A stretch of DNA of 59,660 bases, filler included, from Sluysia triapertura (lineage: Eukaryota), in assembly GCA_046118255.1 (NCBI GenBank). It is 4 parts of 4 records of this genome, joined end to end, with 100 filler letters (N's around TTAATTAATTAA, not from the genome) between each part and the next. Parts side by side here need not be neighbours in the genome. Positions count along the whole stretch, not along the records: positions 47,353 to 59,660 come from JBJNIA010120861.1; 3 more parts are not named here. The stretch is one strand, 5' to 3'. This document shows positions 1 to 59,660 of this stretch, one piece after another (position 1 is the stretch's first letter; each line of letters starts with the position of its first letter). The notes under the pieces are model-generated. The model was not told the origin of the DNA, ran no database searches, and saw only the letters and a program-made list of their open reading frames with translations. The position numbers were made by a program, and so were the translations under genes.

Positions 1-3000
1 TAATAATAATAGAAAACTAACGGTTAGAATCTAGAACCATTCAGTTTGTGTTGTAATATAATTTTAAAGATTTTAAATTATAATATTTTAAAATAATAAT
101 TATTATTATTATCATTATAGCAATAATAATGTAAATAATAAAATAATGATAATGTTAATAATATTAAGAAACTTAATAATAGTAATGTAATTAATATAAT
201 AAGTTTAAGATGTGCAAGGCTTTATTTATAAAAGTTCAAATAACGATCTTTAATCCTGCGCATGTCGCGGTTGATCCAATAGATACAAGCTATTTCTTTT
301 TAAATACTCTTTTTTATATTAGACGTAATGCTTGAATGTCATGTCTAGCTAAGCATGTGCATGTTAATAATGAGAAACTACAATGGTTTTGCGGTTAGTT
401 TCAGTGTAACACGTGTGACATTTGATTGTAACTTGATTACGAGAGATACACGCTACCTCCGCATGTTTAAGGTTATTATTTACGCTATTTATATATATGT
501 ATTATTATTATTACACAATGTCAGAAATATTGATTCTAATTATATATTGGCACAGTTGTTACTAATATAATGTAATGTCGTTAAAACTTTTAAACATAAA
601 TCTTGGCGGAAATTCAAAAATACAAGAAATTAATTGTTAATATGAGAAAAAACACAAAGTTGACTAAAACAAAATGAAACTAAAACTTACTTGGTAATAT
701 AAAGGATTAATAGATTATCAATAGATTGTGATCTCATCATAAATAAATATTTGCTTAATAAAATTGAATCCAGAATTGATTAAATTATTACAATATAAGA
801 ATCTCATTTTTTGGAATTAAACAATTAGAAATGTTTTTTTGTAAAATATAAACATTAATATTAAGTTTCTGTGTAGTATAAATAATACCTTGAAATCCGA
901 CTAAAATTTAGTTTTAAATTTATGAACAACCATTTTAAAAAGGCTCGTAAATAGTAACATATGGTATTACTGCATCATAATAAAGAACCTGTACATTATT
1001 ACTGTTACATTACACATAATTTTGCTTAAAATTTTTAATTTGAGTATTGTCAAGTATTACTCTTTGTGTATAAATATAAAATAAAATTCCATTTGAAAAT
1101 TAGATACTAACTAAAAGAATAATTATAAAAGATTAATTGACTTCCATTTTTGTTTTAAAATTATTTATTGCAAAATCCTTTACTAACTTATAATAAAAAT
1201 AAGCTAAATAATGATAACGATAATAATAGTAATGATTTTAATTATGAAATAATAATAAATAAGGCTTTACAATCTAAAATATGTTGTGATGATACATTCT
1301 CATATTAAATGAGTATATGAATAAATTAGCTAAGCTTCGCAAAAACAAACAAAATTACATAAACTCTCAGTAAGAACAGTGACAGACTTGACATCAATTA
1401 TATTAGCATTTAAAGAAAAGAAAAATATTGTATTATTAATTAAAAAGAGAACATAAAATGTTAAATTAAAACGAAATCAATGAAATTATTGAACTCAAAT
1501 TAAAATTTAAGAAAACGATTGAAAAATTGCAATATATTATATTAAATGAAGAATTTACAACTACTTAATTATCTTGAAAGGAAAATTCTACTTAGTTTAA
1601 TTAAATTATAAGATCACCTTATTCATATAATGTTACAATCTACTCAAATTCATTTAATTTTTGAGGTAATTATTTGTTTAAGAATTTTCGTTTTAATATT
1701 TGGTTGTTAAAGCATTATACATTAATCTCTGATAAGTTTCAAATATTTAGATAAGTGAACATCTTAATATGTTCAAACTTTTTTTAATTCTGGAACAATT
1801 ATGACATTTTTATACGATTTATATTACGAAAAAGACGTATTAACAGAAAAATCAGAAGGTATGAAAGAATACCTTATATCTTACAGCAATACAGTTAACG
1901 AGGATCAGCGTTTTTTTTACTTTCTTACAATTAACAACTATCAATTTATTTTTAAAATTATGTATTCTACCTTTTTACAATCCTTAATTTTATTTTTCTT
2001 AATATGTATATCTTTCTATTCTAAATCTACTTTTGATACTTTTAATGAAAAGAACTAACAATATGTATAAATGTTAAAATTGTATACAAACAAAAATGTA
2101 TATTAATTAAAAACAAAATGTATATAAATTGATTATAAGATATAGACATAACAAGGATTGCTCCTTCAAATAAATAATACAAAATGATTTTAAAAATGAT
2201 TCTGATCCAGGCGAATACTTGGATTTTTTAATTTAATAATGGTTTTACCTATATTTTAAAGCAAAAAATATTAATGCTAAACTTATCAGTAATAAGCTTA
2301 TTTATTCTGAGATATCATCATAAATATTCCAAATGAGAAGAGAGTGAATAATCAAAGAGGATGAATTAATTTTGTCCTTGTTTCGTAGAATTTAAATTTA
2401 TATCCAGTCGATGGTTCTTTTAGGCAAAATCCACAGTAAATTGCCAAAAGAATGTAAAATTTGTCTTTAAGAATTTTTTCTTTTATGTAGTCTGTAATGA
2501 CTACATTTGAAATAATAAAAACTCAAATTAAACAATTTTAATTTAAAGAAGTATATAACATTTTCTGTTGTTTTTATCACTTTCTGGATAAAATTTGAAA
2601 ATAAATTGTTGACCAAATAAATAAATTGATAATGTAAATTGATGACCAAAATCCAATGCGATAATATATTCCGACAAAAAATTTCTTTCAAAACATTCAA
2701 AAATGAAAAGACTAGAAAATGCTAAAAACTTTAAACTTGACAATTTTGAAATGCACATTATTAACGAAATTAAATACTTGTGAAATAAATAAATTAAATT
2801 AAATAAATTAATTAAATACTTGTGAAAAAACTGAAATAATAACTAAACTGAATTAAAAAATATTATAGAATTTAATAAATCAAAAGTAAAAACTCTTTCT
2901 ACCGAGATTTTGTGTATATTTAGATCTACGATGAGCTGAAGGAAAATTACACCGCTAAATAAATTTAAAAATTATTATACGAAATGTCAAAAAGTCGTTA

Positions 3001-9107: not shown

Positions 9108-9870
9108 ATTCGCCTGTGTTATACAATTTATATCGCATGAGGACGTATTCACAGGGTGTCAGATGTCAAAAGCTACGTTAAAGAAATCCTTAATCAATTT
9201 TGCGACAACATAAATCTATTTGATTCAATTCGAGGGTCAATATTTTACTTTCAATATATATTTAACTCAAAAAATCAATTTACTCTTTGGGATGTCACTT
9301 AAACCAATTTTACTTTGTTAAACTCTACTAAATTTAAATCACTTAACTATCAATTTATCTATACTAAAATCAAAGACTTAAACAATAACCAAATTTATTA
9401 TTTAAAGAAAAACAAATTGATAAATATATGTGTACAAAAATTTTGAATATATTAAGTATATGGATATATATCTCAAGGTATTTCTCCTTGATTTTTAACA
9501 AATATAATTGAATTTAGGTAGATTTTAACTCAGGCGAATGCTTGAGTGTAATATGAAAAGATTTTAAGTTGATTTTAATGCATTAGATTAATGCGAAACC
9601 TTAAGAAAAATAGTATACTTATTCATGGAAAAATATCTGCAAATTGTTGTTTGGTTCCAAAAAACTGTTCAATTAATTTGAAAACGAATAGTTGCAGTAG
9701 TTACATAAGTTTCTCCAAATGCTTGAATAGTGAATTAAAATTCTCCTTGAATGCTCGAACAATTGAAATTTCCACAATTAATGGCTTTAATAATTAATGT
9801 CCTATTCTGTTGAATGTCTAACTATTTATATATTTGAAAATTATTTGATATTTACCGATATTCCTCCATG
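9108..9870 (-). repeat. Copy of a dispersed decayed family (unknown ORF with QAFAWVKI-like motif plus downstream stem-loop)
   Basis: The reverse complement aligns with 53150-53950. Example: ttttccatgaataagtatactatttttcttaaggt..ttaaaatcaacttaaaatc versus ttttccatgaataaatatgttaatttttgtaaggt..ttaaaatctacttaaaatc. Confidence 0.75.
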
Positions 9871-11789
9871 TAAGTGAAATAATTAATTGAATTAATTTTT
9901 TGTAAATAAGTACCAAATTGTAAATTGAGATTTTTTGTGAGTAAATAAATTATAAATTGAATTAAATAACGTCATTAACTTCATAGTCAAAATAATTGAA
10001 TTAATTTACGTTAATTTTGTGAATACTCGAATAAATAAATTATTATCATCATTAGTTTTATAAACAATTTATAAATTAGAATAAATAATTAATTGATTAA
10101 TTTACATAATTTACACTTCGAAATTTAAAATCCTCCTTAAAAAATATATAAATTACCAAAAATTGATATTGTCCAGAGAATGATCGAAAAATAGCTGGAA
10201 ATTGTGACAATTACTAAAATTCACAATTATCTTGAATCACGCATGAAATTGAAAATTTTGTATTTTCTAGAATGGCGACGATAAAATGGCGATTTTCATT
10301 GTATTGATGGTATTTTATATATTAGTCATCATCCAATGAAAATCGATGGAATGTTCTAGATTAATTAAGACGTTTTATATGATTTTGATTAATTTTTTGA
10401 TGGTTTTAAATAGTTTAGTGTCATTATGACATTTTTGAATTATTTTGTAGGGTTGTGATGACAACCTAGCAAAATTATCCTATGATAAATTTCTAATAAA
10501 CGCTTCACAACCAAGTTGCGATTAGTCATAAAAACATTCAGGCCGCGTTCCACTTCTGATTGCACAAACTATAGTTTTGTTCACTATCATTCTTGATTTA
10601 TCATCATGAGCATTATTCACACAACTATTAATTACTATTAATTACATAAAACAAACGAAATCAAGAATAAATTTTGATATAAAGACACATGAATTATTCA
10701 CTTGATTATACATTTCGTATAAGAATTTGTTCAGAAATAAATAATTCGTATTACAGCAAAAACTACTCAATCTTTTCCAAGCAACATGAAAATTTTTAAA
10801 ATTTTTTAATTAATGATTTTCATTAATGCATTTTTATCTCTTTAGTTTTCATTTTCACAAATTATGACCTGATTAGTAGACATTATAATTATTAATTTTA
10901 TCGTTTTAAAGATATAATTATTACCATTGAAAGTAGCATTTGTTAGTAAAATTAAATTGGCATCTGTCTTCCAATTCGTACGAACGAAAACTATAATAAT
11001 TGTTTGTCAGTTAAGTAAGTGTGTAAAAGCTATTGTTTTGAAAATGGTTTTAGTAGATGTTTAATTTCTATTTTGCAAGAACAAAGTTAATATACTTTAT
11101 ATAATCTTATCGTAAAGAATTATTGTATTTGAGAATGAAATAAAATTCTTTCCATGTTTAGTTTAAAGTTTAGTATTTAGCGTCTATGAATACTTAGAAA
11201 GCGTTTAAAATAAGTAAATGAATAAAATGTTAAAGAGCTTGATAAGTGAGAGTAATATACACATTTTACTAATCGAAATTTTATTTGAATTGTGTGATAT
11301 AAGATAGTTTTATTATTATTTGTGGTAGACAGTTGCTATTAGACATGATAAAGGTAAGAAACTGTCTATGAAATGGAAGATAAGCTTTTGAAGAGTGTAG
11401 TGACAAGTTGTATGTTAAGTAATCTAGTGAGGTTTACATCAAAGAATATTTAAAAAACATTAGATGATCTAAAAACAAATAGTTACAAGGTGTGTTTATT
11501 GAATTATATTGTAATTTAAAGTGATTAAGATTGAAGATATAATTANNNNNNNNNNNNNNNNNNNNNNNNNNNNNNNNNNNNNNNNNNNNNNNNNNNNNNN
11601 NNNNNNNNNNNNNNNNNNNNNNNNNNNNNNNNNNNNNNNNNNNNNNNNNNNNNNNNNNNNNNNNNNNNNNNNNNNNNNNNNTAAACTTCAAATTTAAAAT
11701 AATTAAGATTTTCTTGATGAATAGAACTTATTTGAATATTCTAATAAACTTTATCATTTAATAATTTATAAAATTATAATTTTCTTAAG

Positions 11790-17100: not shown

Positions 17101-19057
17101 ATAACAATTTTGACAATTACGTGGTATGGGTGTGTCAAACTTTACCAGATACAATTAAGGTCATCTATTATTTTCCTTTACTTTACTCAATCTACTTTTA
17201 GTTAAAACAACTTCTCACATTAAAATAACAATCATTGTTGTTAACATACATAAAAATAATGAATTTAATTTTCTTTTTAGAATTTAATTGATTTTCGGTT
17301 TTTCACATAAACCATTCTACAAACTCAATTTTTTCATAGCAATCATATATTCAATTCATTATATTTACATCATTCTAAGTCTAAAAAATTCAACATTCCA
17401 TAATTAAGAATTAATTAAAATTTAACTTTGCTCAATATGTTGTGTTTAAAGTTTTTATTAAGGTTATAAATTATTTAGTATTTGATAAGGCATCAAGGAG
17501 GCTCTAAATGTTTTCACCTTCACCTTCACTTCTTCATGTTAATTACTATCATATTAAATTTATCTTTAAAATAGCAACAATGATTTTATTTTTGTCTAAG
17601 ATTATATATATCATATTTATATTTATTAAATGGATAATTATTAATTATAAATGAATACAAATAAAGTTTAAATTTGTTTATTGAAAAATTCTTATAAATA
17701 AATTTATTTTTTTTATTTATAGAATATTTTTTAAATTTAATCGAATAGAAATAAAGTTTGTATTTATTTATCATAAAATCATGGAAATTAATCTCATCGA
17801 ATTTGTTTAACGAATAGTTACAAATAAATATTTCTTTAAGACATTTATTAAACATCAAAATCATTTGATTTATGAAAAAAATGTTTTATTGAATGTTTTA
17901 TAAACTATCGAGCAATAATTGCTGAAGTATCATTGAGCACGTGAGGGTATTATGCTACATAAGTTTGTATAAGAATAAGAATTAAATAAAAAAGAATAAT
18001 CAGAATTAAAACATAATGCTCGACATAAAAAATAGTATACCTTTGTGTTCGTTGGATGCCAGAACACTTCGTACTGTTGTATGAATCAGTGTATTGTCAC
18101 GGAATTGATGTTTATAACTTATGTTTGAAGACATTATGGAATAGATATCATGATCTCTAAATTGTTAAATAAATAATAACAAGATTGTGTGTTTAGCAAG
18201 TCGTTGAAATGGATAGTGCATTGGCAGGTAAGCCTTTAGTAATACATTACTAATAATATGAATTTTCAGGTACGATTTTGTAGTGTACACTTCATTAATT
18301 TTACTAATTCACAAATAGTTTATTAATGCCGAAATCAACTTTAAACTTGAATTATTCGAACTTATAACACTATTAGAAGATACTGATGAAGTTATTGTCA
18401 TGACTACAGATGATTTTGATTCCGATATTTTCGAGGTTAATACTTATAATTTCTAATGTTCCTTTTCCGAAGTAGTTTTATTAGTTAAATCTCTTGTGTT
18501 CTTTTCTTGGGAAATTGACTTTTTTGTGGAAATTACATCACTTTTAACAGATATATTTCTTCGTTTACCTTTCATTTATTTAATAATGATTTAATTTCTC
18601 GAAATATTCATTTAGATAGTTATAAAGAAGTATATATAATTTTTCGATGTAGGAATAATATATCAGTTAATAGTTCAAATCGTAAAATATTTAGTAAATT
18701 GTATTTGTATTTTTCAAATTGTTGTGCTGTTCACTTTTGTAAAGAACTAATTTTTATAACGATTTTTAATGGCTAGCCAATAACAAACAAATGTTTTGTT
18801 GCTAAAGTAAGTAATTGGAATTTTTCTAAATGAAAAGCTGTCAAGTCATGACAAGAGTTAAATTAAAAATGTCAATTTATTGTTGCAATTGACATATNNN
18901 NNNNNNNNNNNNNNNNNNNNNNNNNNNNNNNNNNNNNNNNNNNNNNNNNNNNNNNNNNNNNNNNNNNNNNNNNNNNNNNNNNNNNNNNNNNNNNNNNNNN
19001 NNNNNNNNNNNNNNNNNNNNNNNNNNNNGTGCAGAATAAAATTAAAAGTGAGTCCAC

Positions 19058-19250
19058 CAACGTATTGGGCTTACTGAAAATGGCCAACCGTTGGATTTAT
19101 TGTGCAAAATTTATATGAGCTTAAAATATTGTAAGGTTACGAAAATGTCGTATACTTAGTTGGAGGTTTCTTAAAAATTTACTTTATTTCAATTTACTTG
19201 TATTTTAATTTCGTTCTTACTTGGAACCAGTAATGATTTTAATAAGGTTC
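19058..19250 (+). repeat. Dispersed repeat, homologous to 59487-59660
   Basis: aacgtatt(g/a)ggcttactgaaaa..ggccaaccgttggatttat and gttcttact(t/c)ggaacc(a/g)gtaatgatttt(a/g)ataagg occur at both loci. Confidence 0.9.
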
Positions 19251-22411: not shown

Positions 22412-22490
22412 ATCGAGCGACTTTTCAAGTTTGAGTGTCATAGTAACCGAAGCTACTTAGAATCAGATCCAACAATCTCTCTAAATCATT

Positions 22491-22536
<46 letters not shown>

Positions 22537-22861: not shown

Positions 22862-22967
22862 GTATAAGTTTTACTATATTCTGTTAGTGTAAGGTCCAAG
22901 AAAACCACAGCATAATTTTATTTTGATTTTATTGTACAGAGAGAACAATTTTAGTTTTGTATGAAAA

Positions 22968-23160: not shown

Positions 23161-26100
23161 TTTTGAATTCTTTGGGAAGAATATTAATTATATTATTTTT
23201 GAAATCTTAATTTTTGTTGTGTCACCTCTTATTTTCTTTTTGCACGGATTATTAACATTATTATAAAAAAAGTTATTGTTAACTTTCTTCTAACTGTTTA
23301 TTATTTTTTAGTTATCTCCCTTAAATTATTGTTAAAGCGGAGATTTACTGTAGTAAGTTGTTCTTAATTTTTTGTAATTATTTTAACACTGAGTTTTGTT
23401 ATTGATGTGAATTAAAGAATATAACTTCTGTTGGGGTTGAATAGTTACCGTTACTAAACTAATGGAATTTGAGATAATTTAAATTTATTTTGATAAGTAT
23501 TGAAAATATTGGGATACCGTTTAAGCTATTACTGACTTGTTGTAATCGGTTAATTCAAAGACGCAGCACACACGCATATATAGATCAACTTGATTAATTT
23601 CTGTTTTCAGACGCATCCATTTATTTTAGAAAGTGTTTTAGAAATTGCCTAAATTGCTAAAGTTTTATATGGTTTGCAATTGCTTTTTTTATAACTTATA
23701 TCTTGCACTTACAAAATAGAATTAAAGTGAACGATTTGTACTAGGTAGAGGAATGTCCCTATATGATTTGAAGAATTCTTTCCAAGACTTAAAAGAAATT
23801 GGAAACTTTATCTTCCGTGAGGGTCTATTTGTAGGTAGATTATTTACTACTGTTTATCAACGAAATATTTTATTATGATTGTCTTAAATTATTTCTGCCT
23901 TTAAATTATTTCAAATTAATGATTTGTTCTTTCTTAATCCTCTAATTACTTAGTTTTTATAATACTCTTTCTAACTACATATAACAACGCTAACAAAAAT
24001 TATGAGTATTTATTACCAAATAATAAATATATAAAAAAATTTCACCAACAAGGGATATTTCAAATATACAAAAATTTTCAGTATTTGAATAATAATATTT
24101 TGAAATAATAAGACGAAACTTAATATTCTTATAATATTTTAAACTGGCTTTAAAGTTAACTTTAAACCAGGCTAAATAAATGATGAATTTACGTGGATTT
24201 TGAATCTTGCGTTTAATAAGAACACTTAACAAATATTCTTACAATTTTTTCCTTTTTTAGAACAAAAAAGAAAGAGTTTCAATTAAATGACTGAAACTAA
24301 AGAGATATGCTGACTTGTAACTTTTCTTTTATTTGATGTGTAAATTTTAATTATCACTTGCTTTATATACTCAGTCATTTCATTAAATTCTATTATTAAA
24401 ATCCAAAATATATACAAAACCATTAAACGTAATATATTTCCAATAAAAATAATCCATTTACCATAGTTAATTTTTAGTGTTGCACTAATTAATTTTTTTA
24501 TTAATTTATTAATGTATCTTCCATCAAGGATGATTTTATTTAAAAAAACAAGTTATTTTTAAATTTTAAAATTTACTAGTTTAGTGGATTCACATTACGT
24601 ACATTTATTCACACACATCATTAAAGAACCACTAATTTTCTAACTGCTGAATCCGCAGTCAACAGTTGAATAGTTCTGTGTTTAATTTGCATGTCATGTA
24701 GCAAAAGAAAGAAAGATACACTTAATATGCGTGAAATTATTTTATTGTTGACTTCTCAAAATATGTAATATTTATTTCATTAGTATCGATTGACATTATT
24801 TGTTATTTTTTATAACATTTTTTACTTCGTCATTTGACGAATATTTTTACCATTATCAAAACGTTTAATATGGTACTACTTATAAATTGGAATTTTTTCT
24901 TGGTTAATTAAATACAAAAAGTTTTCATATATCACTTAAAATATCATCTCTAAGTTTTCCTATTTTTGGTGAAATTGGATACCACGAAAAGTCAAACTTA
25001 AAAACAAGACAACTTTAAAAGTTAAAAAAGTAAATTAAAATGAATTTTATAATAATTTTAAGTTAACTTCACTTTACTGATTCGAAATTCCTGTACAAAA
25101 CTCTAATAATTTCTATTTGGTGAAATGATCACTTGACCGTTATGATTTTTACGTAATACACTAAATTAACTTATTTATAAAGCATTAATTTGTAATTTGG
25201 TTGTAATATGTGAATTATATGCAAACTTTTTTTTATATTTGTTACTTTGATAAGGATTAAATTAAAAATTTCGTATACTATTTTACCTTAAAATTGTAAA
25301 ATTGTAAAATAGAAAATAAACAATAAACAATAAATTCAATTTAAATCTTAATATAAACTAAGATTTGCTTTTAAAATTTATTTAGTATTTTCAATTGTAA
25401 GTAATTAATAATATGTAAGAAATTGCTTCATTTTAATGCATAGTGCGTATCGATTATTAAATAAACACAAATTTCGAATTAACAATGCAAAATAAAATAA
25501 TCTCTGCTTTTTAAATATTGATTTATTGAAAAATCAATGAAAATGGATACTGATGAAAATGGTATAAGTAATTTATTGTAATTTAATTAATATGTAGTTT
25601 TAATAATTTTATGAAGATTTTTAGAAAACTTTATTTTTTTGAAATAATTACGTAAAAGATAATCTATATTAATATATTTAAATTAGATTAAAAACTAATT
25701 AAAATTTGTTTAATTAAAATGTAACAGTAAAATAAACTTATATTTTACATCAAGATTAAACATAATTTTTGTATTGAAGTATGAATAAAAAGTGGAGGCA
25801 AAGTTCACCGACTTTGTATATGACAGTATTTATTTAATTCCACAGATTCAAAGTTTCAGTCATTCATAGCATTAATTAATAAATCGATTTTAATTCTGTG
25901 GTTTTTTAACTCTTAACCTAAGCAAAATAAATTTTACTAAGGTTCCGTTACAGTAAACGACTTACAGGTAAAATGGTGTGTGGTGTCCCACTTGTATATG
26001 TTGTTTTTGTTACCACGTATAATTACAATTTTACATAAAATTCTTTGTACTAACATTTTTTACATTTCGTAAACTCATCATGTATCACATCAACCACAAA

Positions 26101-29510: not shown

Positions 29511-30707
29511 ATACATTTTAAAACTGACATAAACATGTCAACACTTCATTTATATAATTTTGGTTAGTGATTTTTTTCACAGCAAAAAAATCTACAGATT
29601 AAAATGTACAGTAGGTAGATCTGTAATGATTTATAATGTAACAAAAAATAGACAGCATAATCACAAACACATTTCATCACAAATAAACACTTCATACATA
29701 AATAAATTACAAACACGGTCATAATAATTTACAATTACTATAATTTTACAATAATTATTATCATAATTATTAATAAAATAATAATAGCTATTATCATGAC
29801 TGTTCTAATAGTTACTATTACTATTGTTCTAATAATTATTATTCTAATAATTTTTTGTTTGTTGCTATGATAACTGTCGTCATTACATTGTTTAAAACTT
29901 TGTTATTGTTCAATTATTTATTAAGCCTTTACTAATGTCGTATGTTAAAATAAATCACTTTCATAAAGTTAATAGTACCTTCGCATCTTTATTTCACCTC
30001 TAATCGTTTAAATTCTGTGGACGAGCCCTTAATTACGTAAGTCTCGAATCACAGGCGAACTTGTGATAACGTATTTATGATGGTAGGTTAACACCTTTAA
30101 AGAGAACCGCATCTATTATTATTATTATTATTATTATTTATTAGAATTATAATTAGAATTATTTAATTGTTCCCTTCATTATTTTCATCATCATTATTAA
30201 TTTTCTAATATTGTTGTGTCTTTTAATACTTTTATTTTCCCAAATTATTAAATCAAAACTCAATAATCAAACAAACTCAAAACCTCAATATATTTGTTAT
30301 ATTATCAAAACTACAATCAGAGTATATAAATTATGACAATACGAATTGTCTTTATAAAAATGACAATATAAACTATTCTTTATAAAAAATGAATTATTCT
30401 TTTAAAAACAAATTATAACCAGGGGTGACACAACTTATTCAAACTTNNNNNNNNNNNNNNNNNNNNNNNNNNNNNNNNNNNNNNNNNNNNTTAATTAATT
30501 AANNNNNNNNNNNNNNNNNNNNNNNNNNNNNNNNNNNNNNNNNNNNGAGTTTGACTCAAGTGTAATACTTGAGTATAAAATAAAATGAGTTTAAGTGAAA
30601 GTTTAATACAATTTTATTATTGTATAATCCTAATATAAATAGCTTACTAGTTTTATGTGTTGATACAACAAATTTTCTTTTGTAGAAATTAAGTCCTTCT
30701 TCGAGAG

Positions 30708-31226: not shown

Positions 31227-31893
31227 GTTTTTAATTTAAAAAATTTTTATCTAATATTTAAAACAAAATTAAATCGAGTTATTTTTATCTAAAATTTTGT
31301 CTGCTTTCTTTATCTAGAATTACAAAGTTTATAAATTATTTTTATCTAAATCAATTTTAAAAGTTTTGTCTACATTCTTTAATTAACTTAATTAATAATT
31401 TTGTTTATGTTAATTAATGAAATTTTAATTAATTAATATCTGTTTATTTTTGAATCATTATTTTTGATCTATTTACTTTAATGATCTTTTAGTATCTACA
31501 GTAGATATGAGCGCAATGTAAATTAATATATTATTATTATTAAGAAAAATTAAAAAATAAAATTTATAGGCCAAAAAAGTAAGTATAAATAGAATAACTT
31601 AAAACAGTTTAAAAAACAGACTAAGATCAAGAAAAAGAAATCAGAAAGCAGCAGACCAAAAAATTTTTGAAGCAGCAAATCTTTCAGCATTATTAAATCA
31701 TCAATTAGTGAAAAGTAGAAGATCTAGACGCAGCATAAATTAGTTATCATCAAGAATCAGAAATCTAATATTTCCATAATTTTATTATGATGAGCAAAGA
31801 TATCAATGATATCAAAAATTTTTTTAGCATTAAGTTTTACATATTACCCTAAGTGGAATATTTAAAATCATAGGAGAATTTCGATATACTTTT

Positions 31894-32330
31894 TCAACAC
31901 CTTAAAGAAAAGGTTGAGTAACTTATAATTTTAAATTTTATAATCAATCTAGTGATTGAATTATCAAAATTATATTATTATACATTTGTTTTTTGTAATC
32001 TAGTTTTTAGTATTTGATAAGTAAAAATAAAATATTGGAGGCTTCGATAGCCTTTTCATTGAGAATTTCACACAACTAAATAAATCATTAAAATACTTAT
32101 TTTCGTAACAACACTTTAATAAAAGGGTTGTGAAAAATAAATAAAATATCCTTTTTAATACAACATCTCAGTAAGAGAGTTGTGTAATTTATTTTATTTT
32201 AACAACACCTTAATAAAAGGGTTGTGTAACCTAATTAAATTCAAAAGATTTAAGTAGACAAGTCGAGTTTATTTAGTTGTAATTTAAGCTAAGTTACTTA
32301 AATTTAAAAATCCTAATAGTGCGTCTCCAG
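31894..32330 (-). repeat. Four-hairpin array, ACAAC/GTTGT variant
   Basis: 24-bp imperfect palindromes at 31894, 32108, 32160 and 32202. The flank 32230-32330 (reverse complement) aligns with 38172-38280. Confidence 0.8.
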
Positions 32331-32387
32331 AATTGGTATAAAACATACATATTAGGTGAACTAAACCCTCGGATAATTTGTTGATAA

Positions 32388-32549: not shown

Positions 32550-34166
32550 ATAAGTGTAAGTTAAATTATAAAAACATCAGCAAAACATAAACCTATAAAT
32601 GCAACAATTTATTCTTAATAACACATAGTTATCAATAAGGGTTCAAAATAGTTATCTAAATTTTCAAGAAATTTTTCAACATAATTTTGTTCTCTAATAA
32701 AAGGAATCTTTTAGCGGAACTATCCTTCATTAATTGAAGGATATACGTTTTTGCTTGGATTATCCTGTGTGATATATTCAATTTTTGGACATGGTATTCG
32801 AAATATGCATTAAAATATTGCTGTTTTTTGAACAAATTATCTTAAGTTAACTCTTGATAAGTATTCAACTATATCTAACTTAAAATCACTTCAATTTTAT
32901 CAAAAGTTAAGAATAATTCCTGACTTAATATTAATTTTTAAATACATAAAATTATACTGAAGGAAATCTTTAGATTCAAAGTGTATTTATATTATAATTA
33001 TAATTATAATTATAATTATAATTATAATAATAATTATTAAATTCGTTATTTTCTATATTGTATAACTTTTATCTACCGTTTGTTAAATAAAATTAAAAAT
33101 GGAGTTATTTTACTTATTTGTAAACTGATAGTTAAAATAATAAAGTGAAAGCTTTTAATTAGTAATAGGATATTGATTAACCATAAATTTTGGAACTACT
33201 TTGAGAAAACTTAATATCTGGTTACGTTGAGTCTAATAGAAGTATTATAAATAAGTTCGAAATTATAAATTTGGATAATTAACTAGCTAGGTGTTAAAAA
33301 ATATTTGTCATTGAATAAAATTATACTTTGATTTTGCATATTGATTTAAGGACCATCCTTCGCAGAAAACTGACTTATACCTGTAACCATGTCTTCCATA
33401 AGGATATTAATCGCAGGATTACAGATGAACCCCTAGAATATATTAATTATAATTGTTGTGTTTGGGAAAAACAAGAAAAAACACAGCATTATTCTATAAG
33501 TTACTTCATCCTTTACCAAAACCAACGGAAACAATTCTATTATAACAATTTTTCCATACCTAATTACAGACACGCCTATTACACGTTTTAAGTTTTGTGC
33601 TGTAACTGGACTCTGATAAAATTTATTTTGCCTTAGGGTAATAATAAGAAGCACCACAGTGAATAACCTGCTTCGTCAAAAAATATAACAGTTTTAAATT
33701 TAGTTTGTTTTAGCATATTTTTACATTAATTTTTAAATTTAAAAATTAAAAATAACCGTTTCAAAGTTTTTAAGCTTAATTTATCAAATGATTTTAATGC
33801 AAATTTTTAGATGTGATAGTTTCCAAAATGTATTTTTAAATTTCAAAAATATTATAGCTCTAAATACAATATTTAGTTCTAAATACAAATAGTCTATCGA
33901 TTTATCATTATACAGAATTTATACTCCAATATATATATTTCTTATTATTTTAAAATTTATTTAATGCGTACAATTTTATAAACTATCCAAATAAAATAAT
34001 GTTTATTGTTTTAATAAATACAAACGTATAATAAATTTTTGTGTCACATATTTTGTATCTATTTATGTTATTAATTGAATATTTCTAATTTAAAATTATT
34101 TATGTTTTATTTTTTCAATTTTATTTGCTACTCGTTTTCCATTGATTTTTTTCTTTATTGTTATAA

Positions 34167-36434: not shown

Positions 36435-37157
36435 ATACAACATCATGTTTATCACACAAATCTCCATTCCACGAAGATGAACTATTTCCATACACTTTCA
36501 CGAAGATGAACTATTGTTATACAACCAGCGTGATTTACTACTAGTTTCATGATAGTGTTTACTAAATTTTATTTCCACACTAGCTCTTGAAAGCTTTAGA
36601 ATATTTTGTAGTAGCTCATTGGCAAAAATATCCGCATTGTCTGTAATGTTTTCCTGCATTGACCAGTATTTTAAATTAATTCTTTTTACTAAGTAGATTA
36701 ATTTCTAATCTTAGTAGAGTATAAATATTGAAAAATTCAATTACGGAAATTCTACGCTGCCGTAATTTGAAAATTTCCATATTTTTAGTCAAAGAATTTT
36801 ATAAGTGTATACTAAACTTAGACTACATTATTGCAAGTGTTTTACTATGAAAGAGCTTATCTTACATTTACAAAATAATCTGAAGGTCAGTTCGCCTAAT
36901 TGATATGTTTATATTTTAAACAAACCTATCAGCATAATGAAGAAAATTAGAGTTCGCTTGCAACATACTACTTAAGATTGGCGTAGCTGCAAGTAACGTG
37001 AATATCGAATGCATATATATGGAGTAAATGAAGTGAATTCAAAACGGTGAATGTAGTTTGAAAAGAATTTGTACAATATACTCTACAGCTATATTTATAT
37101 TAAAAACTATGGTAATAAATAACGAATGTTACAAAATATATATTATTAAAAATACTA

Positions 37158-37484
37158 CTGTAAAATCTCGAGCATAAGCTGCAGCTAATACTTACATAAA
37201 GGCAACATTTTTGAATTGCAGCTAATATGATGTGCAGCTTATACAACTAAAAAACAATTCAAATTGAAGATAAGATTATTTATTTGCTGAACTAAAAGAT
37301 CTTCGTTGTTTCTTTTGTTTTTGTTCAGAATCGTTATCCATTTTAATCAAGGATTCAAAACAAAATGGTTATTGTTATTGTGGCATTTGTTTTTTAATGA
37401 TAGGTTGCTTATTTTAAAATCATGTGTCATCAACACAAATGGTGCAGCTAATACGCGCTGCAGCTTATGCTCGGGATTTTACAG
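37158..37484. mobile_element. Tc1/mariner-pogo type MITE, 28-bp TIRs, TA TSD
   Basis: ta|ctgtaaaatctcgagcataagctgcagc ... gctgcagcttatgctcgggattttacag|ta, one mismatch. Internal tgcagct(a/t)at repeats. Confidence 0.93.
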
Positions 37485-38171
37485 TAATAAAAATGATAAA
37501 ATAATTTAACAATACCAACAAAATTATGATAACAAAATGATAATCATAATAATAGTTTAAACTTGATAGACTTACGCCTCAATCGAACTTAAATAATATT
37601 TTAATGAGATTTTATTTTGGTTTTAAGCACCAACACAAATGAGTATGATTTTGAGTTAGATTTTGTAACTCCTATGTAAAATTAAGAGCTTTCAAACTTA
37701 CTTGATAAGGATTATATTGCTCTGATTGCGTAAATATTTTTTTGTATAAGCAAATATAAACAAATAATTTGTATGAACGAATAAAGACAATTATTTCGTA
37801 TGCACAAATGTAAACACGTAGCTCGTATAAACGAAAATGAAGAAATGCTATTAATGAAAATTCTACTGTTTTTATACTATTTTATTCATTTCAATCCAAT
37901 AAGAATGTTTTTATTATTTAAACCATTAATAACCATTAAAAATAAATGCATTAATTCTGTTAACATTATTTTGTAAAAATAATTCCATTATCAATTAATG
38001 TTTCTATTTAATTTTTTACATAAAATATTTTTCCATTAATATTTCTATTATTTCATTAATGTCTCCGTTTGCATTAACAATACAATTTAATGTTTATGAT
38101 AACAATTTTGAAATAATATCAATAACATAATATAATTTACAAATTTACAATAAGCACGGCTTAAATCTATG

Positions 38172-38582
38172 AAGAAGGCGTCCTATTAGGTTTTATCTGC
38201 GAGAGTAAGTTACGAGAATTAAGCAATAATGTATTCAGTATTTTTCGTCAACAGCTTAATGAATTTCAATGGATAGATTAAACTAGCCCATTATGGTCTA
38301 CCTTTAGAAAATAGTTTAAGTTAGCCGATTATGGTCTGGCGTACAAATCAAAATAGTTTAATGAATTTAACGTTAAGCTAGCCTTCTTAAGGTCTAGCAA
38401 ATTAATCAATATTTTTAATTCAAAGAAAATTTAAAATAAGCACTTAAAATTTATTGGACACAAAACGTTAAAATTATACACAATAAACAACAAGGATAAT
38501 AAAAATAATAATGTTAATTACTTAATTCATCAGTAATATATTAAATTTTAAATGGAAATTAAACTAGCCGTAAAAGTCTAGT
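38172..38582 (+). repeat. Four-hairpin array, GCTAG/CTAGC variant
   Basis: Units ttaa(a/g)ctagcc-N6-8-(g)gtctag at 38278, 38316, 38373 and 38559. An inverted homologue lies at 59134-59440. Confidence 0.85.
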
Positions 38583-46082: not shown

Positions 46083-47369
46083 TTAAACATTTTATCGCTG
46101 TTATTAAAATTTTGTAACATATCTCATATTGTGGACAAACACGTAATAGTAATAGCCAAAGCAATAGTAATATTGAGAGTTTTCATTTATATTAAAAGAA
46201 ACATTTCGAAAATGGATAATTATCTCAATTTACACCAAATTTCGGAACTAAAATAAGAAAGTTACGTAAGAAAATTATATGCTTCATGCTTAATCTTAAT
46301 CAAATTAGAAAGTACAGCTACCACAAAAAGTACATCAAAATTTAAAAAGTATTACAATAATTACACAATGTTGGAACAAGATTTATTGCAGTGATTCATA
46401 ATGAAAATTACTCGCTTTCTGTATTATACTCGATTAATAAACATTCACACACTAATACAGTAAAATATTATAAGTTAGTGAAAATGAAATTGTAGAGGGC
46501 TTAATATTGTAGGCTTATTATAGAGAAAAATTAACTGTAGAAAACTATAATAAAAATCACTATATAAATAAGTATTTTTTACTATAATTTCATTAATTTA
46601 AGGTTATTTTTCTAGTTTGAGGTTTGATATTATCCTGCGAAAGTAAACTTTTATTTACTTCGATTAACTATGATGGTATTCAATCATAATAGTTTCAACT
46701 CTTTTGCATCACTGATCATAAGAAAAAGGTCAGCCAAACCTTCAAAATTCAACTGAGTACAAATCTTGTATTTTTTTAAAATTTACCTTTTTATCGAATA
46801 TTGTCTTTACTTGACCATTCGTTTTCACCGTCTGTATTATTATATTGTATACATTGGAGATTAACAATTCTTTAAAAAATATTGCACTATTGAAGTATTC
46901 CATCAAATATTTTCAAATATTATCGCTACTTTGATTTTCATACAAATCAAATGGTATTTATTTGTAATTTCAAACTCCAAAATTTGAAGGTCACTTAATA
47001 ATGAAGAGGTATTTCAAGAGGTGTCTTTATACAGGTCGATACCTGTATGTAAACTCTAAACATCTGTATCAATCTTTTTTATTGTCGTTGCTATGGGGAT
47101 GTTTTTTAAATGTATTGAAATATTATTATAGTTTTCCTTAACTTTTTGATCGCTTAGTAGTAAATGGTCATAAATGTTATTAAGTTTTATTAGTCGATTC
47201 TTAATGAAAATAATAATTAACTTATAGATAGGTTCAGATGGGAAATCAAAAGNNNNNNNNNNNNNNNNNNNNNNNNNNNNNNNNNNNNNNNNNNNNTTAA
47301 TTAATTAANNNNNNNNNNNNNNNNNNNNNNNNNNNNNNNNNNNNNNNNNNNNCGCAATATAAATTAATA

Positions 47370-47429
<60 letters not shown>
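47370..47429. repeat. (ATT)n microsatellite
   Basis: Direct inspection. Confidence 0.95.
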
Positions 47430-47570: not shown

Positions 47571-47672
47571 TTAACACTAGTGGAAGTGGCGCCAGCTTTT
47601 TAATGACGCCATATAATCTCTCAAATAAATTTATGTTCGCAAAAATGCGCTCACTAGTGGTTAAAGGGTTAA
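47571..47672. mobile_element. Short piggyBac-type MITE remnant
   Basis: Right end cactagtggttaaaggg|ttaa. The left end ttaacactagtg appears partly deleted. Confidence 0.5.
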
Positions 47673-48593: not shown

Positions 48594-48732
48594 TGTTTAA
48601 TTTGGAATCATTCGATTTTGTTCATTCGATTTGGTTTATTCGATTTGCTATTTAATTTGGAATCATTCGATTTTGTTCATTCAATTTGGTTTATTCGACT
48701 TGCTGTTTAATTTGGAATCATTCAATTTTGTT
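48594..48732 (+). repeat. 55-bp tandem repeat (2.5 units) built from ~14-bp subunits
   Basis: t(g/a)tttaatttggaatcattcgattttgttcattc(g/a)atttggtttattcga(t/c)ttgc at 48594, 48649 and 48704. Confidence 0.95.
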
Positions 48733-49525
48733 GTCGGAGTTTTTCAATTTGATTCAGTAAGCTATTATTTATAAGATTTCGACCCTATTGTTTGCGGTCT
48801 TAAATTACACTCAAACTCTTTCATAAATTTTTGTAGAATAAACCCACAAGTACTTTCTGGGTTAAAATCTCACTTAAACTTGTAATATATATATTATTAT
48901 TATAATTAAATTGTCTATATTGTTTAAAATTTTATTGAGTTGAGTTTTCTAAATTTTTTTATTGTTGTTCTATACCTTGTTATATTTAATAATAAAAGTT
49001 CCTACATCAAGTTTTGTTGTGTTATTGAATAAGAAGTTTATGAGATTTAGTGAAGAGAAAAATAACGATTGTTTAACAAGAAAGTGTTATAAATTTAGAT
49101 ATTGAATAAAAGTTTTCAAGATTAGAAGTTAGTATATATTAAAGAAAATTAAAGATTTTTTGAATTAGTTAATTTAATAGTTACAAAAATATATAGAAAA
49201 AGGGTTGAAAAAGGAGTAAAGATATTTAAGTACTAATAAGAATATAGTTTAGAATTAATTATTTGGTAGAGTAATACGGACATAATCGTATAGTGAATAA
49301 TTTCTTTTGAATACATTAACTAATTATCAGATAAAAGTTTAATCTCTAAAAAACACAAAAAAACACTCTAACAAAGCATAGAGTACTGACCCTCGTTAAT
49401 TCATTTGACAAAGCTTTAAAATCCTACGCAGACGTCCATCATAGGTAAATCGTTTAGCGTAGGCTGACCCAAAAGATAAAGTTAACATTTTTATAATTGT
49501 TCCAAGAGTAAGAAAACCGAACACT

Positions 49526-49630
49526 AGAATGTTCTAGAATATTCTATAACATTCAATCAATACAATGAAAATCGCCATTTTGTAATAACATCAATTTTAT
49601 AACAACTCCATTTGCACAGCGCCATTTTCG
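49526..49630. promoter_or_regulatory. Perfect four-unit heat-shock element beside YY1/Pho-type motifs, inside a repeat
   Basis: AGAAT GTTCT AGAAT ATTCT at 49526-49545. CGCCATTTT at 49573 and 49620. A 26-bp exact inverted match to 10283-10308. Confidence 0.5.
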
Positions 49631-51701
49631 TATCATTTTTAAAATCATTGGGAAATAATTCTGTCAATCGCCGCCACAATTCGATTTGAAAAATTCATTG
49701 GAAATTTTAGATAAGAATCAACATTTAATGCCCATGAATAAAGTAATTTATTTTTCTTACGGTTTCCCGATATATTGAAGGGTAAAATACAGTGCAAAAT
49801 CATAATTAAATAGGTTAAAGGCTCGAGAGAGTTAAAATAATCTATTGAGATTTTTTTGTTCTTTCTGTCTTTTTGCATTTTTATCCTATAAACAATTTTA
49901 GTTATTTGATTTTTGTAATTTTTAAATAAAAATTCATTTGACGTTTGTGATTTTATTTAATAATTGAACATTAAATCATTATAATTTGACCCTCTTATAT
50001 TTAGATTGTCAGTTTGTCTTAACTTATATTGTTACAGAAGTGCTCTCTTTACGACATAAACCGGATTTAGATTTAAGCATCAGTAAAAACCACAGCAATA
50101 TTAATATTTTTAATTTTATTTCAATGTTTTTTTACATACAATAAAAAATAATTTAATAAAATACAATAAAACATAAAATGTATTAATAGACTAAACCCGA
50201 TTAAATATTGGAATAATTCGTAAATGATGTACCCTTCTTGAAATTACATCATCACAATTTCGACATATGATTAACTGAGCTATTCGACTATAAAAATTAT
50301 CTAAAATAAAATATTAAAATAAAATTTTATAATTTAGTTTCTCATTTTGATTTATTTCATTTATTTTGTCCGAAACTATCTATAAAACAAAATATAAATT
50401 ATTTTTCCATGGTTTGTATCACTACGTGAAATTATCGGTTGAAAATATTTTTATTAAATCAGATATCTTATGATTATTTAAATTCAATACATTGAAACTT
50501 ATGTGTGAACAGTAATGCGTCAATATAGTAATGAGTTCGTACTTTTAATATATTATTTCAGTATTTTGTGAAATTTAGAAAAGATAAAATTATAATAAAT
50601 TATGATATATTCAACAAATGTGAACAAGAGCGCTTTTCGTTTGTAATATTAAAGAAAAATAGGTGTAAAATAGACCATAATTAAAAAGTAAAATAAACAG
50701 TATACATTTAGTTATGTTAAGATTTAATCTTTCTCTGAATTTTCTAAAAGTTAAAAGTAAATTAGTTAATTAATTTAATTAAAATCATTTAAAAATCGTT
50801 TTAACCCATTAACTTTGAGTATAGTATTGCAAGCTGTTTTATTCGGACTAACTTGCAAAATAAAATCTGATTTTAGGTTCGTCTACAGCACGACATGTCT
50901 ATAGGATTTCAAGTTAATAATGTAATCGTGATGGCGACACTATCAGGACGAGTCTCTATGTTCCCTTATCCTTTAATACTGAGGGTTGGACCAGATAACC
51001 GTATTCTTAATGATATTGTAACATAATAATCAATTTTTTAATTTAAAATTTAACTAATTTAAATTTGTTTAAAATAAGATTGTTTTAAAATAAAGTTAAA
51101 ATTATTTTCATTAAAATTATAGTGCTTTACATTAATTTAAAATGAATATTAATAGAGTTAATATAAATCTAAAATTTAATAACAAATAACAACCAATTTT
51201 AAGTTAAAATTAATAAATTGTCATTTTAAAATGAGATTCTATAGAGGCAATATGAAATCAAAATCTAAGCAAAACTATTTTAATAATAAACTAAAATTTT
51301 ATTAAATTGAGATTGAATAAAACTAGTGCGTAATTAAAGATTAACAATATTATTCTCGATCAAAATTAACTTAAATTAAGATTGGGCAGAGTAGAGAGAA
51401 TAATTTCAAAGCATTATAATCAAGAATAATTATATTATTATGGATTATATATAATTAAAATTTAAATTCAGAGTGATAATTATTAATGTATTTAGCTAAT
51501 GAAACTATTATTAATTTATTATGTAGATTATTAATATTATTATAAAAATTATCAATCTATGTAGAAAAATATTGTTATTATTAGTTATTGAACTGTGTGC
51601 AGTGAAATTATTTACTAACGATTTATTATGTACATACATTATTAATATTATTTTATGTGACAAAATTCTATGTAATAAAAATAATGAGTATAAATATGAG
51701 C

Positions 51702-51856
51702 TGTTAGACTTCATAAATTGGACTGACCGGAGATCGAACCCGGGACCTATCGCTGCGCAGTCGATGCTCTACCACTGAGCAATCATCTCCGTCTAACAAT
51801 TTTTAGATTACTACAGTCCATTATACTACATGGCACTTTAGGCCTGCATACCAACA
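51702..51856 (-). mobile_element. tRNA-containing mini-element, copy B (GAGC TSD)
   Basis: gagc|tgttagac...ataccaaca|gagc, with a tRNA-like core at 51719-51789 (-). Confidence 0.92.
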
Positions 51857-53149: not shown

Positions 53150-53950
53150 TATGGACGAAAACGATATAAAAGGCATAACATTATAGCGAAGTACGCACAA
53201 CAATAATGGCAACGTTAATAACGACTAGGAAGACTACTTTAAATCGTCAAGTGATTGATACATATTCGTTTGGAGTTACTGATCGGTGGAATTCTTTAGT
53301 GGAATCAACAATAATCGATACCAAATACATTCAGGAGTTACTAATTCATCAAGATCATTCGTTTGAAGAACTATATTATCCAGAAATTTTCCATGAATAA
53401 ATATGTTAATTTTTGTAAGGTCTTGGCATAGATACCTTGCCTTAAAATCTACTTAAAATCACTATTTTTTCGAAACTGAAGCATTCGTCTGAGTCAAAAT
53501 CTTAATTAAAATTCAAAGTTTATTGTTATCCAGGAGAAATCCTGATATATTTATACTTCATTATAACCCATTGTATAATTTATATATGTTGTTTTTCAAA
53601 AGAATATATATACTTGTTTCAGAAGTTTTTGAGTTATAAATTCAGAATTTTGAGTGATTAATTTGTAATAATTTAGTAGTTAAATTTTAATTGAATAATT
53701 GTTAAGCATTTTGTAAAGTTTCAAACTTATTAAGTTAAAATTACAAAAGTGTATTAAAGTATTAAATATATTGACAAGTGACTTGTATATTAAAATAATT
53801 TACTTGAGTTAGCGATTAAGAAGTTCTTGAAAAAATACGACGTACATTGCATCTAAGTAGTAAGGAATTCGTTCACGCAGTATTCTTCACCAAAAATTCT
53901 GTGAGTACGTCTTTCACGTCATATAAACCGTGCATCACAGGCAAACCCGT
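53150..53950 (+). repeat. Copy of the decayed ORF plus stem-loop family (see 9108-9870)
   Basis: MATLIT.. start at 53206, EAFV*VKI at 53478 and stem-loop at 53898-53946, colinear with the 9-kb copy. Confidence 0.75.
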
Positions 53951-56900: not shown

Positions 56901-57852
56901 TTTAACTTATTTTATTAAGGTTTTATTATGATTATAAAGTTGTTAAATACTTTACAAGGTACTCAGTAGGCTCTAGATGTTCTCACCTTCACCAATCTCA
57001 TTCCTTTCTCTATTTTTTTATTTCAATTATTAATGTATTAAATTTATTTTTAGTATTATTAACCATGATTTCAAAGGTTCCAAACAGGTTACAAGATTAC
57101 TCGAAGATCTCGAAGTTTATTAAGGTCTCAACGTTTTCAAAGATTCAAACAGATCAAGGTTAAGAAGTTCAAAGGTATCTTCATACTTCAAAACATCTTT
57201 CCAAACCTTGCTTAAGTCATCATGATGGTCTCAATACCATACAAAGGTCTTTGGAACTCCAGGGTATTCTTCAGTTTCAAAATGATTATAAACATTTTAC
57301 TGTTTATTATTCTTGTTATATAAATATTTAATTGTTTTTATTATCATATTTCATCTATTTTATTTCACTTTTTCTTAAATATTTTAAATTCTCTTACCTT
57401 TAAACCTATTTTATATACATTAACTGGACAATCTTAACAATATCAACATTCTGAATTTGTTCGGTTATTCATTTTTAATTTGGAAATTTAAAAATAAAAG
57501 ACACAACATTTTACTTGGCGAACTTGATGTAATGTATTGATTTTAGTCTAACTTTGTGGATGAAAACAAACTTGACTTTAAGGGTCATAATTATCCAGAG
57601 AATTAAAAAATATTTATACACAATAACATAGATAAAAATGAATTTTAAGAATCATAAAATAAGTACCTTTTTGCAAAAATCAATAAATTTCTTTTAGTGC
57701 GATCACGAATCTTTGATGTAGCCTTTTCCCAACCATAGTAGTAAAATGTATAATAATAATTCTTCTACTAATTGTTATGTGATAATAAAATGCTCTTTAT
57801 ATATCATTTAATTTAAGTTTTGAATGTTTACTTATAGTTGTTTGGACAATAA

Positions 57853-58012
57853 TGTTGGGGTAAAAAGGCCTAAAAAGTGCCAAGTAGTATAATTTCATAT
57901 ATTGAAAATGAAATTGTTAGACGGGGCTGATAGCTCAGTGGGAGAGCATCGACTGCGCAGGCGATGGTCCCGGGTTCGATCCCCGGTCAGTGCATTTTAC
58001 GAAAGTCTAACA
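57853..58012 (+). mobile_element. tRNA-containing mini-element, copy C (ATAA/ATTA, TSD with one mismatch)
   Basis: ataa|tgttggggtaaaaaggcctaaaaagtgcca...tgttagac-[tRNA-like core]-ttttacgaaagtctaaca|atta. Confidence 0.92.
57924..57994 (+). tRNA. tRNA-like gene or pseudo-tRNA in copy C
   Basis: GGGCTGATAGCTCAGTGGGAGAGCATCGACTGCGCAGGCGATGGTCCCGGGTTCGATCCCCGGTCAGTGCA, then TTTT. Confidence 0.7.
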
Positions 58013-59133: not shown

Positions 59134-59660
59134 GCTAGACCTTAATACGGCTAGCTTAATTTAAAATTAAAATAATTTGTTAACTGAAGGCCAATCTTTC
59201 GAAATATTAAAATTAAAATATTATTATAAGTTTTATTCATATTTTATTATTTTTCTGTTCCTAATTTGTGCTGTTAATAAAAATTAATTTGTTTATCTCG
59301 CTGTTATTCACAAACTATTGAATTATTTTGCTGGACCTAATAAACGTCTAAAATCCATAAAATATATTTGATTTCCAGGCTAGAAGATAATCGGCTAGCT
59401 CAATCTACTTTTAGAAAACTAGAGCATAATTATTTTAGTACAAAACATATTTCTTCACCATAAGACGTATACAGAATAAAAATAAAAACGTATTAGGCTT
59501 ACTGAAAAAACGGCCAACCGTTGGATTTATCGTATGAATAATAGTGTGAAGCTGTCAAAATATCTTTGAGGATTTTCTTTGATTTATTAATTATTTTTAT
59601 TTTAATCAAATGATATTTTAATTCGGTTCTTACTCGGAACCGGTAATGATTTTGATAAGG
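59134..59660 (-). repeat. Four-hairpin array (GCTAG variant) plus the adjacent segment shared with 19058-19250
   Basis: Units at 59134 (rc ttaagctagccgtattaaggtctagc), 59330, 59379 and 59418, in the same order and spacing as 38278-38582. Confidence 0.85.

Follow-up and report, generated by a model that had tools for sequence, protein, structure and literature searches.

A co-varying hairpin near the 3' end of a diverged, possibly Penelope-like repeat family in Sluysia triapertura

A hairpin with a conserved architecture and compensatory changes in its stems was found close to the 3' end that the copies of a diverged repeat of 1-1.5 kb have in common. The copy-level analysis was confined to a ~60-kb window, i.e. 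the whole stretch of DNA that was analysed (59,660 nt, filler included), in which the repeat occurs about once per 4 kb. The results support the hairpin as a conserved, structured cis-element of a mobile family. Truncated Penelope-like retrotransposons (PLEs) likely make up this family, and we tentatively read the hairpin, at slightly less than an even chance, as the stem-loop by which the reverse transcriptase (RT) of a PLE-like family without hammerheads recognizes its RNA or starts copying.

The window is AT-rich (21-31% GC per 2 kb). A first-pass annotation had described four dispersed copies of a stem-loop, and all four were recovered, at 49423-49463 (+), 9155-9113 (-), 53898-53941 (+) and 30014-30055 (+), with lengths of 41, 43, 44 and 42 nt, respectively. 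Each comprised 7 bp plus 5 bp, a bulged A on the 3' side and a C-N-R-A foot. A descriptor derived from these hairpins, allowing at most one mismatch, matched exactly those 4 sites, i.e. the same copies it was derived from; in 100 local dinucleotide shuffles it gave 0 hits in 55, 1 in 31, 2 in 11, 3 in 3 and never 4. The four copies were thus real, but as a count four was too low, as the window holds about 15 homologues. A covariance model from the four copies, which returned five held-out hits at E <0.1, was followed by a second model, profile HMMs, a stem scan and context; model and context added 11 homologues to a total of 15:

49423..49467 (+): copy 1, one of the original four, CTGA foot, 12/12 pairs, runs head-to-tail into the next unit
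9109..9155 (-): copy 2, original, CGAA foot, 11/12 pairs
53898..53945 (+): copy 3, original, CAAA foot, 12/12 pairs
30014..30059 (+): copy 4, original, CGAA foot, 11/12 pairs, in a 126-nt 5'-truncated piece
1811..1847 (-): copy 5, inner stem 5/5, outer 3' arm and foot deleted (~21 nt)
23724..23765 (-): copy 6, decayed, foot deleted, by context
50032..50080 (+): copy 7, decayed, ~20 nt deleted between short direct repeats, by context
10448..10511 (-): copy 8, CCTA foot, both sides exchanged at the base of the outer stem, bulge with an 8-nt insertion; missed by the models, identified via stem scan and tail homology
32312..32360 (+): copy 9, not used for the first model, TGAA foot, outer and inner stems both new, 11/12 pairs (26.5 bits, E 3e-6)
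33381..33429 (+): copy 10, outer stem 6/6, inner 3/5, A-TGAA foot (model, E 0.075)
19053..19094 (-): copy 11, held out, 6+5 bp, bulged A, TGGA foot, 11/11 pairs (16.3 bits, E 0.011)
50878..50905 (-): copy 12, inner stem and loop deleted, A-CGAA foot (model, E 0.009)
59487..59524 (-): copy 13, sister of copy 11, clean 12-nt deletion of arm end and foot (E 0.34)
38149..38190 (-): copy 14, sister of copy 9, foot decayed (E 0.022)
36953..36993 (-): copy 15, 8+4 bp, CGAA foot, 11/12 pairs (E 2.2 and E 0.11 in separate searches)

The co-variation claimed for the outer and inner stems was borne out. Among the four original copies 46 of 48 pair cells form and 7 of the 12 pairs change on both sides; 46/48 was reached by none of 500 shuffles, slid-partner controls paired at 25-54%, and RNAalifold on a plain MAFFT alignment predicted the same 12 pairs. 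Arm identity between copies is 45-76%, and pairing is nonetheless kept. As copies were added the co-variation did not fade but increased. In a model-fitted alignment of 9 copies, where the fitting leans to the model, 93/99 cells pair and 9/12 pairs change on both sides. In the hand-parsed held-out copies 8, 9, 11 and 15, 44 of 46 positions pair, with new compensatory changes; this count leaves out copy 10 (9/11, two A-C), copy 12 (no inner stem) and the decayed copies 5, 6, 7, 13 and 14. Folding of single copies was uneven (z = -3.5, -0.8, -2.7 and -1.7 for the original four), and the copy at 30014 preferred a different hairpin when folded with its flank. Wider or rod-like folding around the hairpins was not shared by the regions, with z <= -2.4 in only 2 of 7 regions.

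We infer that many lineages kept the pairing under selection while the sequence drifted. Correction of quasi-palindromes in DNA could produce co-variation of a hairpin with no function, and the insertion in copy 8 does perfect a palindrome. This we consider very improbable, because the bulge, the G-U pairs, the long loop and the fixed position are all retained from lineage to lineage, and correction would remove them.

The unpaired letters are conserved as well: YC at the loop start, TAAR at the loop end, the bulged A, and an R-YGAA-CY foot; the loop is 12-20 nt long. The bulge, described earlier as a retained A, is A in most copies and T in two. The CNRA foot of the first-pass annotation held in part, with C at the first position in 7 of the 10 kept feet, T in 3 (TGAA, TGAA, TGGA), and one foot reading CCTA; R-YGAA-CY is the better consensus. 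All three T-type feet read TG, which could be explained by CpG decay of C.

On the strand listed above for each copy (the hairpin strand), G-U outnumbered A-C pairs by 6 to 0 in the four original copies, a figure of 6 that is inflated by the tolerance of the descriptor for G-U, and by 4 to 1 in the four held-out copies; in copy 10 the inner stem has two A-C pairs on this strand. Because of these G-U pairs, the hairpin strand is more likely the RNA strand. A third helix from the loop was predicted on the opposite strand only (33/40 positions, one copy mis-parsed); with P 0.04 or 0.21 depending on the control, it was not clearly above the composition control and is at most a candidate.

Homology extends to both sides of the hairpin, and the hairpin is not a terminal inverted repeat, which argues against its being a TIR remnant of a MITE. 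The sole clear TIR pair in self-BLAST, with repeats of 33 nt, belongs to a separate, MITE-like element of 337 nt at 37153-37489, which was inserted there between copy 15 and its core. The repeat that carries the hairpin has a core block of 150-190 nt and a shared tail:

53383..53562 (+): core block with AATAAA, three TTAAAATC-like repeats and 'FAWVKI' codons
2129-2318, 9442-9633, 19447-19598, 24114-24236, 30546-30652, 54152-54309 and, weakly, 37569-37666 (-): core homologues
31751-31893, 32827-32975, 48750-48904 and 49727-49843 (+): core homologues
49468..49523 (+): shared 3' tail after the foot, ~55 nt, ending near GAACA
29982..30116 (+): candidate TSD, 7 nt exact or 9 nt with one mismatch, around the piece of copy 4
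23662..24874 (-): 1200-nt unit between 12-nt direct repeats (one mismatch)

Eleven of the 12 cores entered the final profile. In 10 of the 12 a hairpin lies 305-675 nt downstream on the same strand; what follows the remaining two is a gap or an inverted neighbour. Three of the ten hairpin-followed cores were weak profile matches (E 0.56-2.9) before their hairpins were known, against ~0.1 such coincidences expected by a rough estimate. As the position of the hairpin is fixed inside the 1-1.5 kb repeat, a stand-alone ncRNA is unlikely. The tail homology reaches 25-30 nt further in some copies. Repeat ends cluster 50-100 nt past the hairpin, while 5' extents range from 20 nt (copy 4) to >1 kb; low-stringency BLAST for the unit ends was swamped by AT-rich matches.

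Four pairs of units are arranged head-to-tail: copy 1 runs into the core at 49727, copy 8 into the unit of copy 2, copy 9 into that of copy 10 and copy 14 into that of copy 15. Three pairs are inverted: copy 3 with the core ending at 54309 (-), copy 4 with that at 30652 (-) across a gap, and the latter with 31751 (+). The gaps are 100-nt N runs with a TTAATTAATTAA linker (14863-14964, 30445-30546 and 47251-47352), and adjacency across them, e.g. of copy 4 and the core at 30652, is uncertain. The compensatory stems differ between tandem neighbours, which thus belong to separate lineages. Of 7 copies tested, 2 are flanked by direct repeats (9 and 12 nt), and the other 5 are without a clear TSD. 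The 12-nt repeat may be element-borne, as it resembles the junction sequence upstream of the unit of copy 2. Two other repeats adjoin family members: a tRNA-derived SINE, present in three copies 82-86% alike at 32384-32552 (-), 51702-51845 (-) and 57850-58017 (+), one of which sits inside the tail of copy 9, and another dispersed repeat with short palindromes next to copies 14 and 13 (38290-38415 and 59134-59430).

Three of the original copies had been placed downstream of a decayed ORF named FAWVKI, and they indeed lie 377-565 nt downstream of these codons on the same strand. The interpretation as an ORF or gene was not supported: mismatches are spread evenly over codon positions, and stops were fewer than in shuffled sequence in only 2 of 6 scored copies (P 0.04 and 0.02). 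FAWVKI is probably a conserved non-coding block. Coding on the opposite strand (DF.P.E...I.AK) was considered and rejected, the codon-position test backing neither strand. Upstream of the cores, the following stretches were noted:

31570..31776 (+): decayed frame immediately upstream of a core, with the GIY-YIG-like words LKNRL and SALLNH
53179..53397 (+): open frame that contains TLNRQ
49560..49730 (+): block shared with 10283-10327 (-), with HSAIF and EILDK in 49610-49730

The third block may be read as a TATA/YY1-like promoter (HSE-TATA-YY1) or, equally, as a set of broken endonuclease-like codons. The sole perfect four-unit heat-shock-element-like word of the window lies at 49527-49544, at the junction of the tail of copy 1 and the next unit. 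We take LKNRL...SALLNH, TLNRQ, HSAIF and EILDK to resemble the end of a PLE GIY-YIG endonuclease. Upstream of the 12 cores SAL..H-like codons were enriched on the hairpin strand (P 0.0003), with the antisense at background, L..RL.EH was weakly enriched (P 0.046), and YIG.T and E..I....P.LN showed no enrichment; when the copy that suggested the motif was removed, the P values for three motifs were 0.06, 0.12 and 0.03. The endonuclease-like codons gave 0 hits among 1.84 billion proteins and none in Pfam, PDB, the Atlas or a word-indexed protein set. We concluded that the GIY-YIG-like codons are suggestive only. No RT was seen in the repeat units.

The PLE-like reading is based on 5' truncation, the shared 3' end and head-to-tail and inverted neighbours, which match the PLE layout. 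In the available part of PMC8557442, PLEs are described with 5' truncation, partial tandems, inverted neighbours and an optional 30-40 nt tail, features that the repeat shares with Penelope/Poseidon PAc and Naiad; the excerpt of PMC3846280 gives the same tandem and inverted layout and TSDs of 8-10 bp. A structured RNA near the 3' end is a further likeness: according to the portion of PMC11167929 at hand, reverse transcription of an Anolis PLE starts at two sites inside an RNA stem-loop, and these sites set the genomic 3' end and the variable tail.

By this PLE-like reading the family would spread by target-primed reverse transcription that begins at a fixed 3' end, with the hairpin strand acting as the element RNA and the decayed upstream codons as a putative C-terminal GIY-YIG endonuclease. 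By analogy, the hairpin would serve, near the start sites, as the signal at which the RT binds or initiates, and would take the place of the hammerhead or initiation stem-loop of other PLEs. The RT would copy from a fixed point ~55 or 85 nt downstream of the hairpin, often stop early, giving 5' truncation, and may jump to another RNA of the family, giving mixed tandems.

Several findings count against the PLE-like reading. The hammerhead is absent, whereas in PMC4209133 one is reported from all deposited PLE repeats whose endonuclease is C-terminal; the endonuclease has no database confirmation, no RT was seen, and 5 of 7 copies are without a clear TSD. Further, PLEs are 3-4 kb long compared with 1-1.5 kb for the repeat unit here, and Naiads have their endonuclease at the N-terminus, in contrast to the endonuclease-like codons of this repeat, which adjoin the 3' block. 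On the other hand, Naiad PLEs reach very high copy number with no canonical hammerhead, as stated in the available text of PMC8557442, and hammerhead cleavage was unnecessary for insertion in the one PLE tested in vitro (PMC11167929). The repeat works like a PLE end, but we do not file it as a PLE member, because the endonuclease is only suggestive, the RT part is putative and no hammerhead is present, although this order of domains would lead one to expect it. Animal non-LTR retrozymes share with the repeat low GC, head-to-tail monomers, long TSDs (candidates only in the repeat) and a proposed PLE origin; as described in the accessible parts of PMC7229834 and bioRxiv 10.64898/2026.07.22.740005, they are 220-400 nt monomers with a type I hammerhead. 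Identity with them was rejected, since the unit of 1-1.5 kb, the highly diverged neighbours and the lack of a hammerhead do not fit.

The structure and position of the hairpin were also compared with the ends of other mobile elements. LINEs carry 3' stem-loops as well. The hairpin could be such a recognition signal of an L2, CR1 or RTE type LINE, or of a SINE-like passenger borrowing such an end, and the fixed 3' end, the 5' truncation, the direct repeat of 9 nt and the (ATT)n that follows copy 4 agree with this. We regard it as unlikely: the six further ends inspected have neither a poly(A) nor a simple-repeat tail, units are often paired in tandem or inverted order, and a loop of 12-20 nt is long for LINE 3' signals. 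Similarly, the copies could be solo LTRs of a Ty3/gypsy or BEL family, with the hairpin in U5 as a packaging or primer-activation signal. Several copies end in CA, the core has AATAAA followed by a T/G-rich stretch, a five-base flank repeat matches at 4 of 5 positions around the unit of copy 2 (by eye), and gypsy-like remnants occur in the window. This seems quite improbable to us: a constant TG start is missing, none of the ends is followed by a primer-binding site, head-to-tail units have no internal domain between them, and the differing compensatory stems of tandem neighbours speak against it too.

A third origin for the hairpin would be a single-stranded DNA origin or terminator of a rolling-circle element, Helitron/Helentron-like or a small circular ssDNA replicon. 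The map looks circular, with the tail running into the start of the next unit, two units have internal tandem repeats, G-T pairs are tolerated in ssDNA, and foot deletions could mark a nick site. The tandem repeats, of 55, 20 and 14 nt, lie just upstream of cores at 48596-48732 (+) and 30708-30993. Nevertheless, we judge this origin improbable. The loops share no nonanucleotide on either strand, compared with what we take to be the CRESS-DNA nonamer consensus; no Rep-like frame was found, and the 5' ends are variable with candidate TSDs. Helitron ends, as defined in the available part of PMC4067079, have 5' TC, 3' CTRR and a 16-20 nt palindrome ~11 nt from the end, but here no consistent TC...CTRR ends, no such palindrome 11 nt from the end and no subterminal inverted repeats were found, and the hairpin of 38-45 nt lies ~55 nt from the end. 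Helentron-associated DINE-1/HINE elements are, like the repeat, abundant and non-coding, with central tandem repeats (here in some units) and a stem-loop towards the 3' end. They differ in their subTIRs and T-rich target pattern, both absent here, whereas the repeat has a 12-bp bulged hairpin with a long loop ~55 nt from the end. The search for a Helentron/HINE subTIR of 12-15 bp gave one candidate word, with 3 occurrences all in unit orientation and no inverted partner; other subTIR words were examined by eye only.

The first-pass annotation had proposed a functional element of a mobile family, which agrees with a conserved, structured cis-element, and among its examples a ribozyme part and a guide scaffold, which were not supported. 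No evidence favoured a guide scaffold. A window search against Rfam gave no match to the hairpin at gathering score or E<=10; the matches in the window were 18S and tRNA only, plus three sub-threshold chance hits away from the hairpins. A minimal-hammerhead descriptor, after the available part of PMC4209133 and with one core mismatch, matched 12 times in the whole window and 0 times within 200 nt of the 15 anchors, and the exact hammerhead core was absent from the repeat units. A strict HDV descriptor matched once in the window, away from every hairpin, none of 217 matches of a relaxed descriptor used one of the original feet, and a descriptor allowing C or T matched in 4 of 14 regions, against 0.73 expected per region, with no shared geometry. 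The nested double pseudoknot of HDV (P1, P1.1, P2, P3, L3) was not found around the hairpins. A part of a known ribozyme was thus not supported, given the lack of an Rfam match, of a recurring HDV geometry and of a minimal hammerhead <=200 nt from the 15 anchors.

The GG-CGAA after the stem resembles what we take to be J4/2 of HDV. The hairpin could then represent P4 and J4/2 of an HDV-like ribozyme that has otherwise lost its helices to decay, and L3-like YCCTCG or TTCACG words lie 15-90 nt upstream in several copies. R2/RTE HDV-like ribozymes likewise have a stem followed by C-G-A-A, but they lie at the 5' end, whereas the hairpin is near the 3' end, has no P1/P2/P3/P1.1 and varies at the C that would be the invariant catalytic C of J4/2, a variation that CpG decay could explain. 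The descriptors gave no shared geometry and used no original foot, and P4, the most variable part of R2 ribozymes in the excerpt of PMC3774820, is the least constrained part of such ribozymes and the best-kept part here. A decayed HDV-like ribozyme is therefore scarcely probable.

Judged from the sequence, a new class of self-cleaving (or protein-assisted) ribozyme might have replaced the hammerhead in a PLE-like family that would form a large part of the genome. It would cut at or near the 3' foot and process tandem transcripts, and the repeated foot loss would record the cut. The hairpin is placed where PLE ribozymes sit, its YC..TAAR loop, bulged A and R-YGAA-CY foot are conserved though unpaired, and its sequence spread and co-variation resemble those of PLE hammerheads as presented in the accessible part of PMC4209133. 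In 4 of the 15 copies (5, 6, 7 and 13) deletions of different length all remove the foot, while the 5' arm is lost in none; in copy 13 the loss, compared with its sister copy 11, is a clean 12 nt. Cutting, nicking or a slip of the RT at this point would each account for the foot loss. Hairpins themselves promote deletions in DNA. The deletion in copy 7 lies between short direct repeats, so that one of the four foot-loss copies has a microhomology explanation with no need for a cut, and the foot of copy 14 is decayed rather than deleted. As, in addition, the hairpin stands alone, with no pseudoknot or junction found, we consider such a ribozyme improbable.

The hairpin and core patterns gave 0 matches in viral contigs, two hairpin patterns gave 0 matches in metagenome contigs, and phage blastn returned only AT-rich pieces of 34-55 nt. 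Among the matches listed, no title or beginning of an abstract described the hairpin; subscription papers and Repbase/Dfam lay beyond the scope of this search. The hairpin probably adds an unreported version of a retroposon end signal. Work on how PLEs select their RNA and initiate reverse transcription is still at an early stage. The function of PLE hammerheads is unsettled: cleavage was dispensable in the one case tested in vitro (PMC11167929) and Naiads do without (PMC8557442). At ~1 copy per 4 kb, a co-varying hairpin that is not a hammerhead would provide thousands of natural variants of the signal and make the question directly testable. Self-cleavage, if it occurs, would make the hairpin a new class of ribozyme; as no more than the 3' recognition loop of a retroposon, it would be a good but ordinary annotation.

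Other features were observed in the window. A truncated and decayed 18S rRNA fragment lies outside an rDNA array at 22470-22910 (-), and a broken remnant of a BTB-BACK (kelch-like) gene at 20116-20612 (-). Both fit an animal as the most likely source, and the 18S piece may be flatworm-like. By eye, from translations, we noted a decayed transposase frame at ~7400-8200 (+), presumably of Tc1/mariner type. A decayed gag-like frame with a zinc knuckle at ~5850-6800 (+) and an integrase-like frame at 21700-22300 (+), both noted by eye, we assume to be of a Ty3/gypsy-type element. A YADD word in a broken frame at ~12350-12500 (+), likewise seen by eye, is possibly a LINE-type RT remnant. A 31-nt end common to 483-513, 31512-31542 and 47353-47383 (+) runs into (ATT)n and is like the LINE/SINE 3' tail of another family. 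A short GC-richer piece at 47575-47662 (+), bounded at both ends by CACTAGTGG, is possibly a small MITE or a Helitron end. Two repeat pairs lie outside the hairpin family: 17449-17586 with 56917-57071 (69% alike), and 35995-36144 with 36324-36468 (83%).
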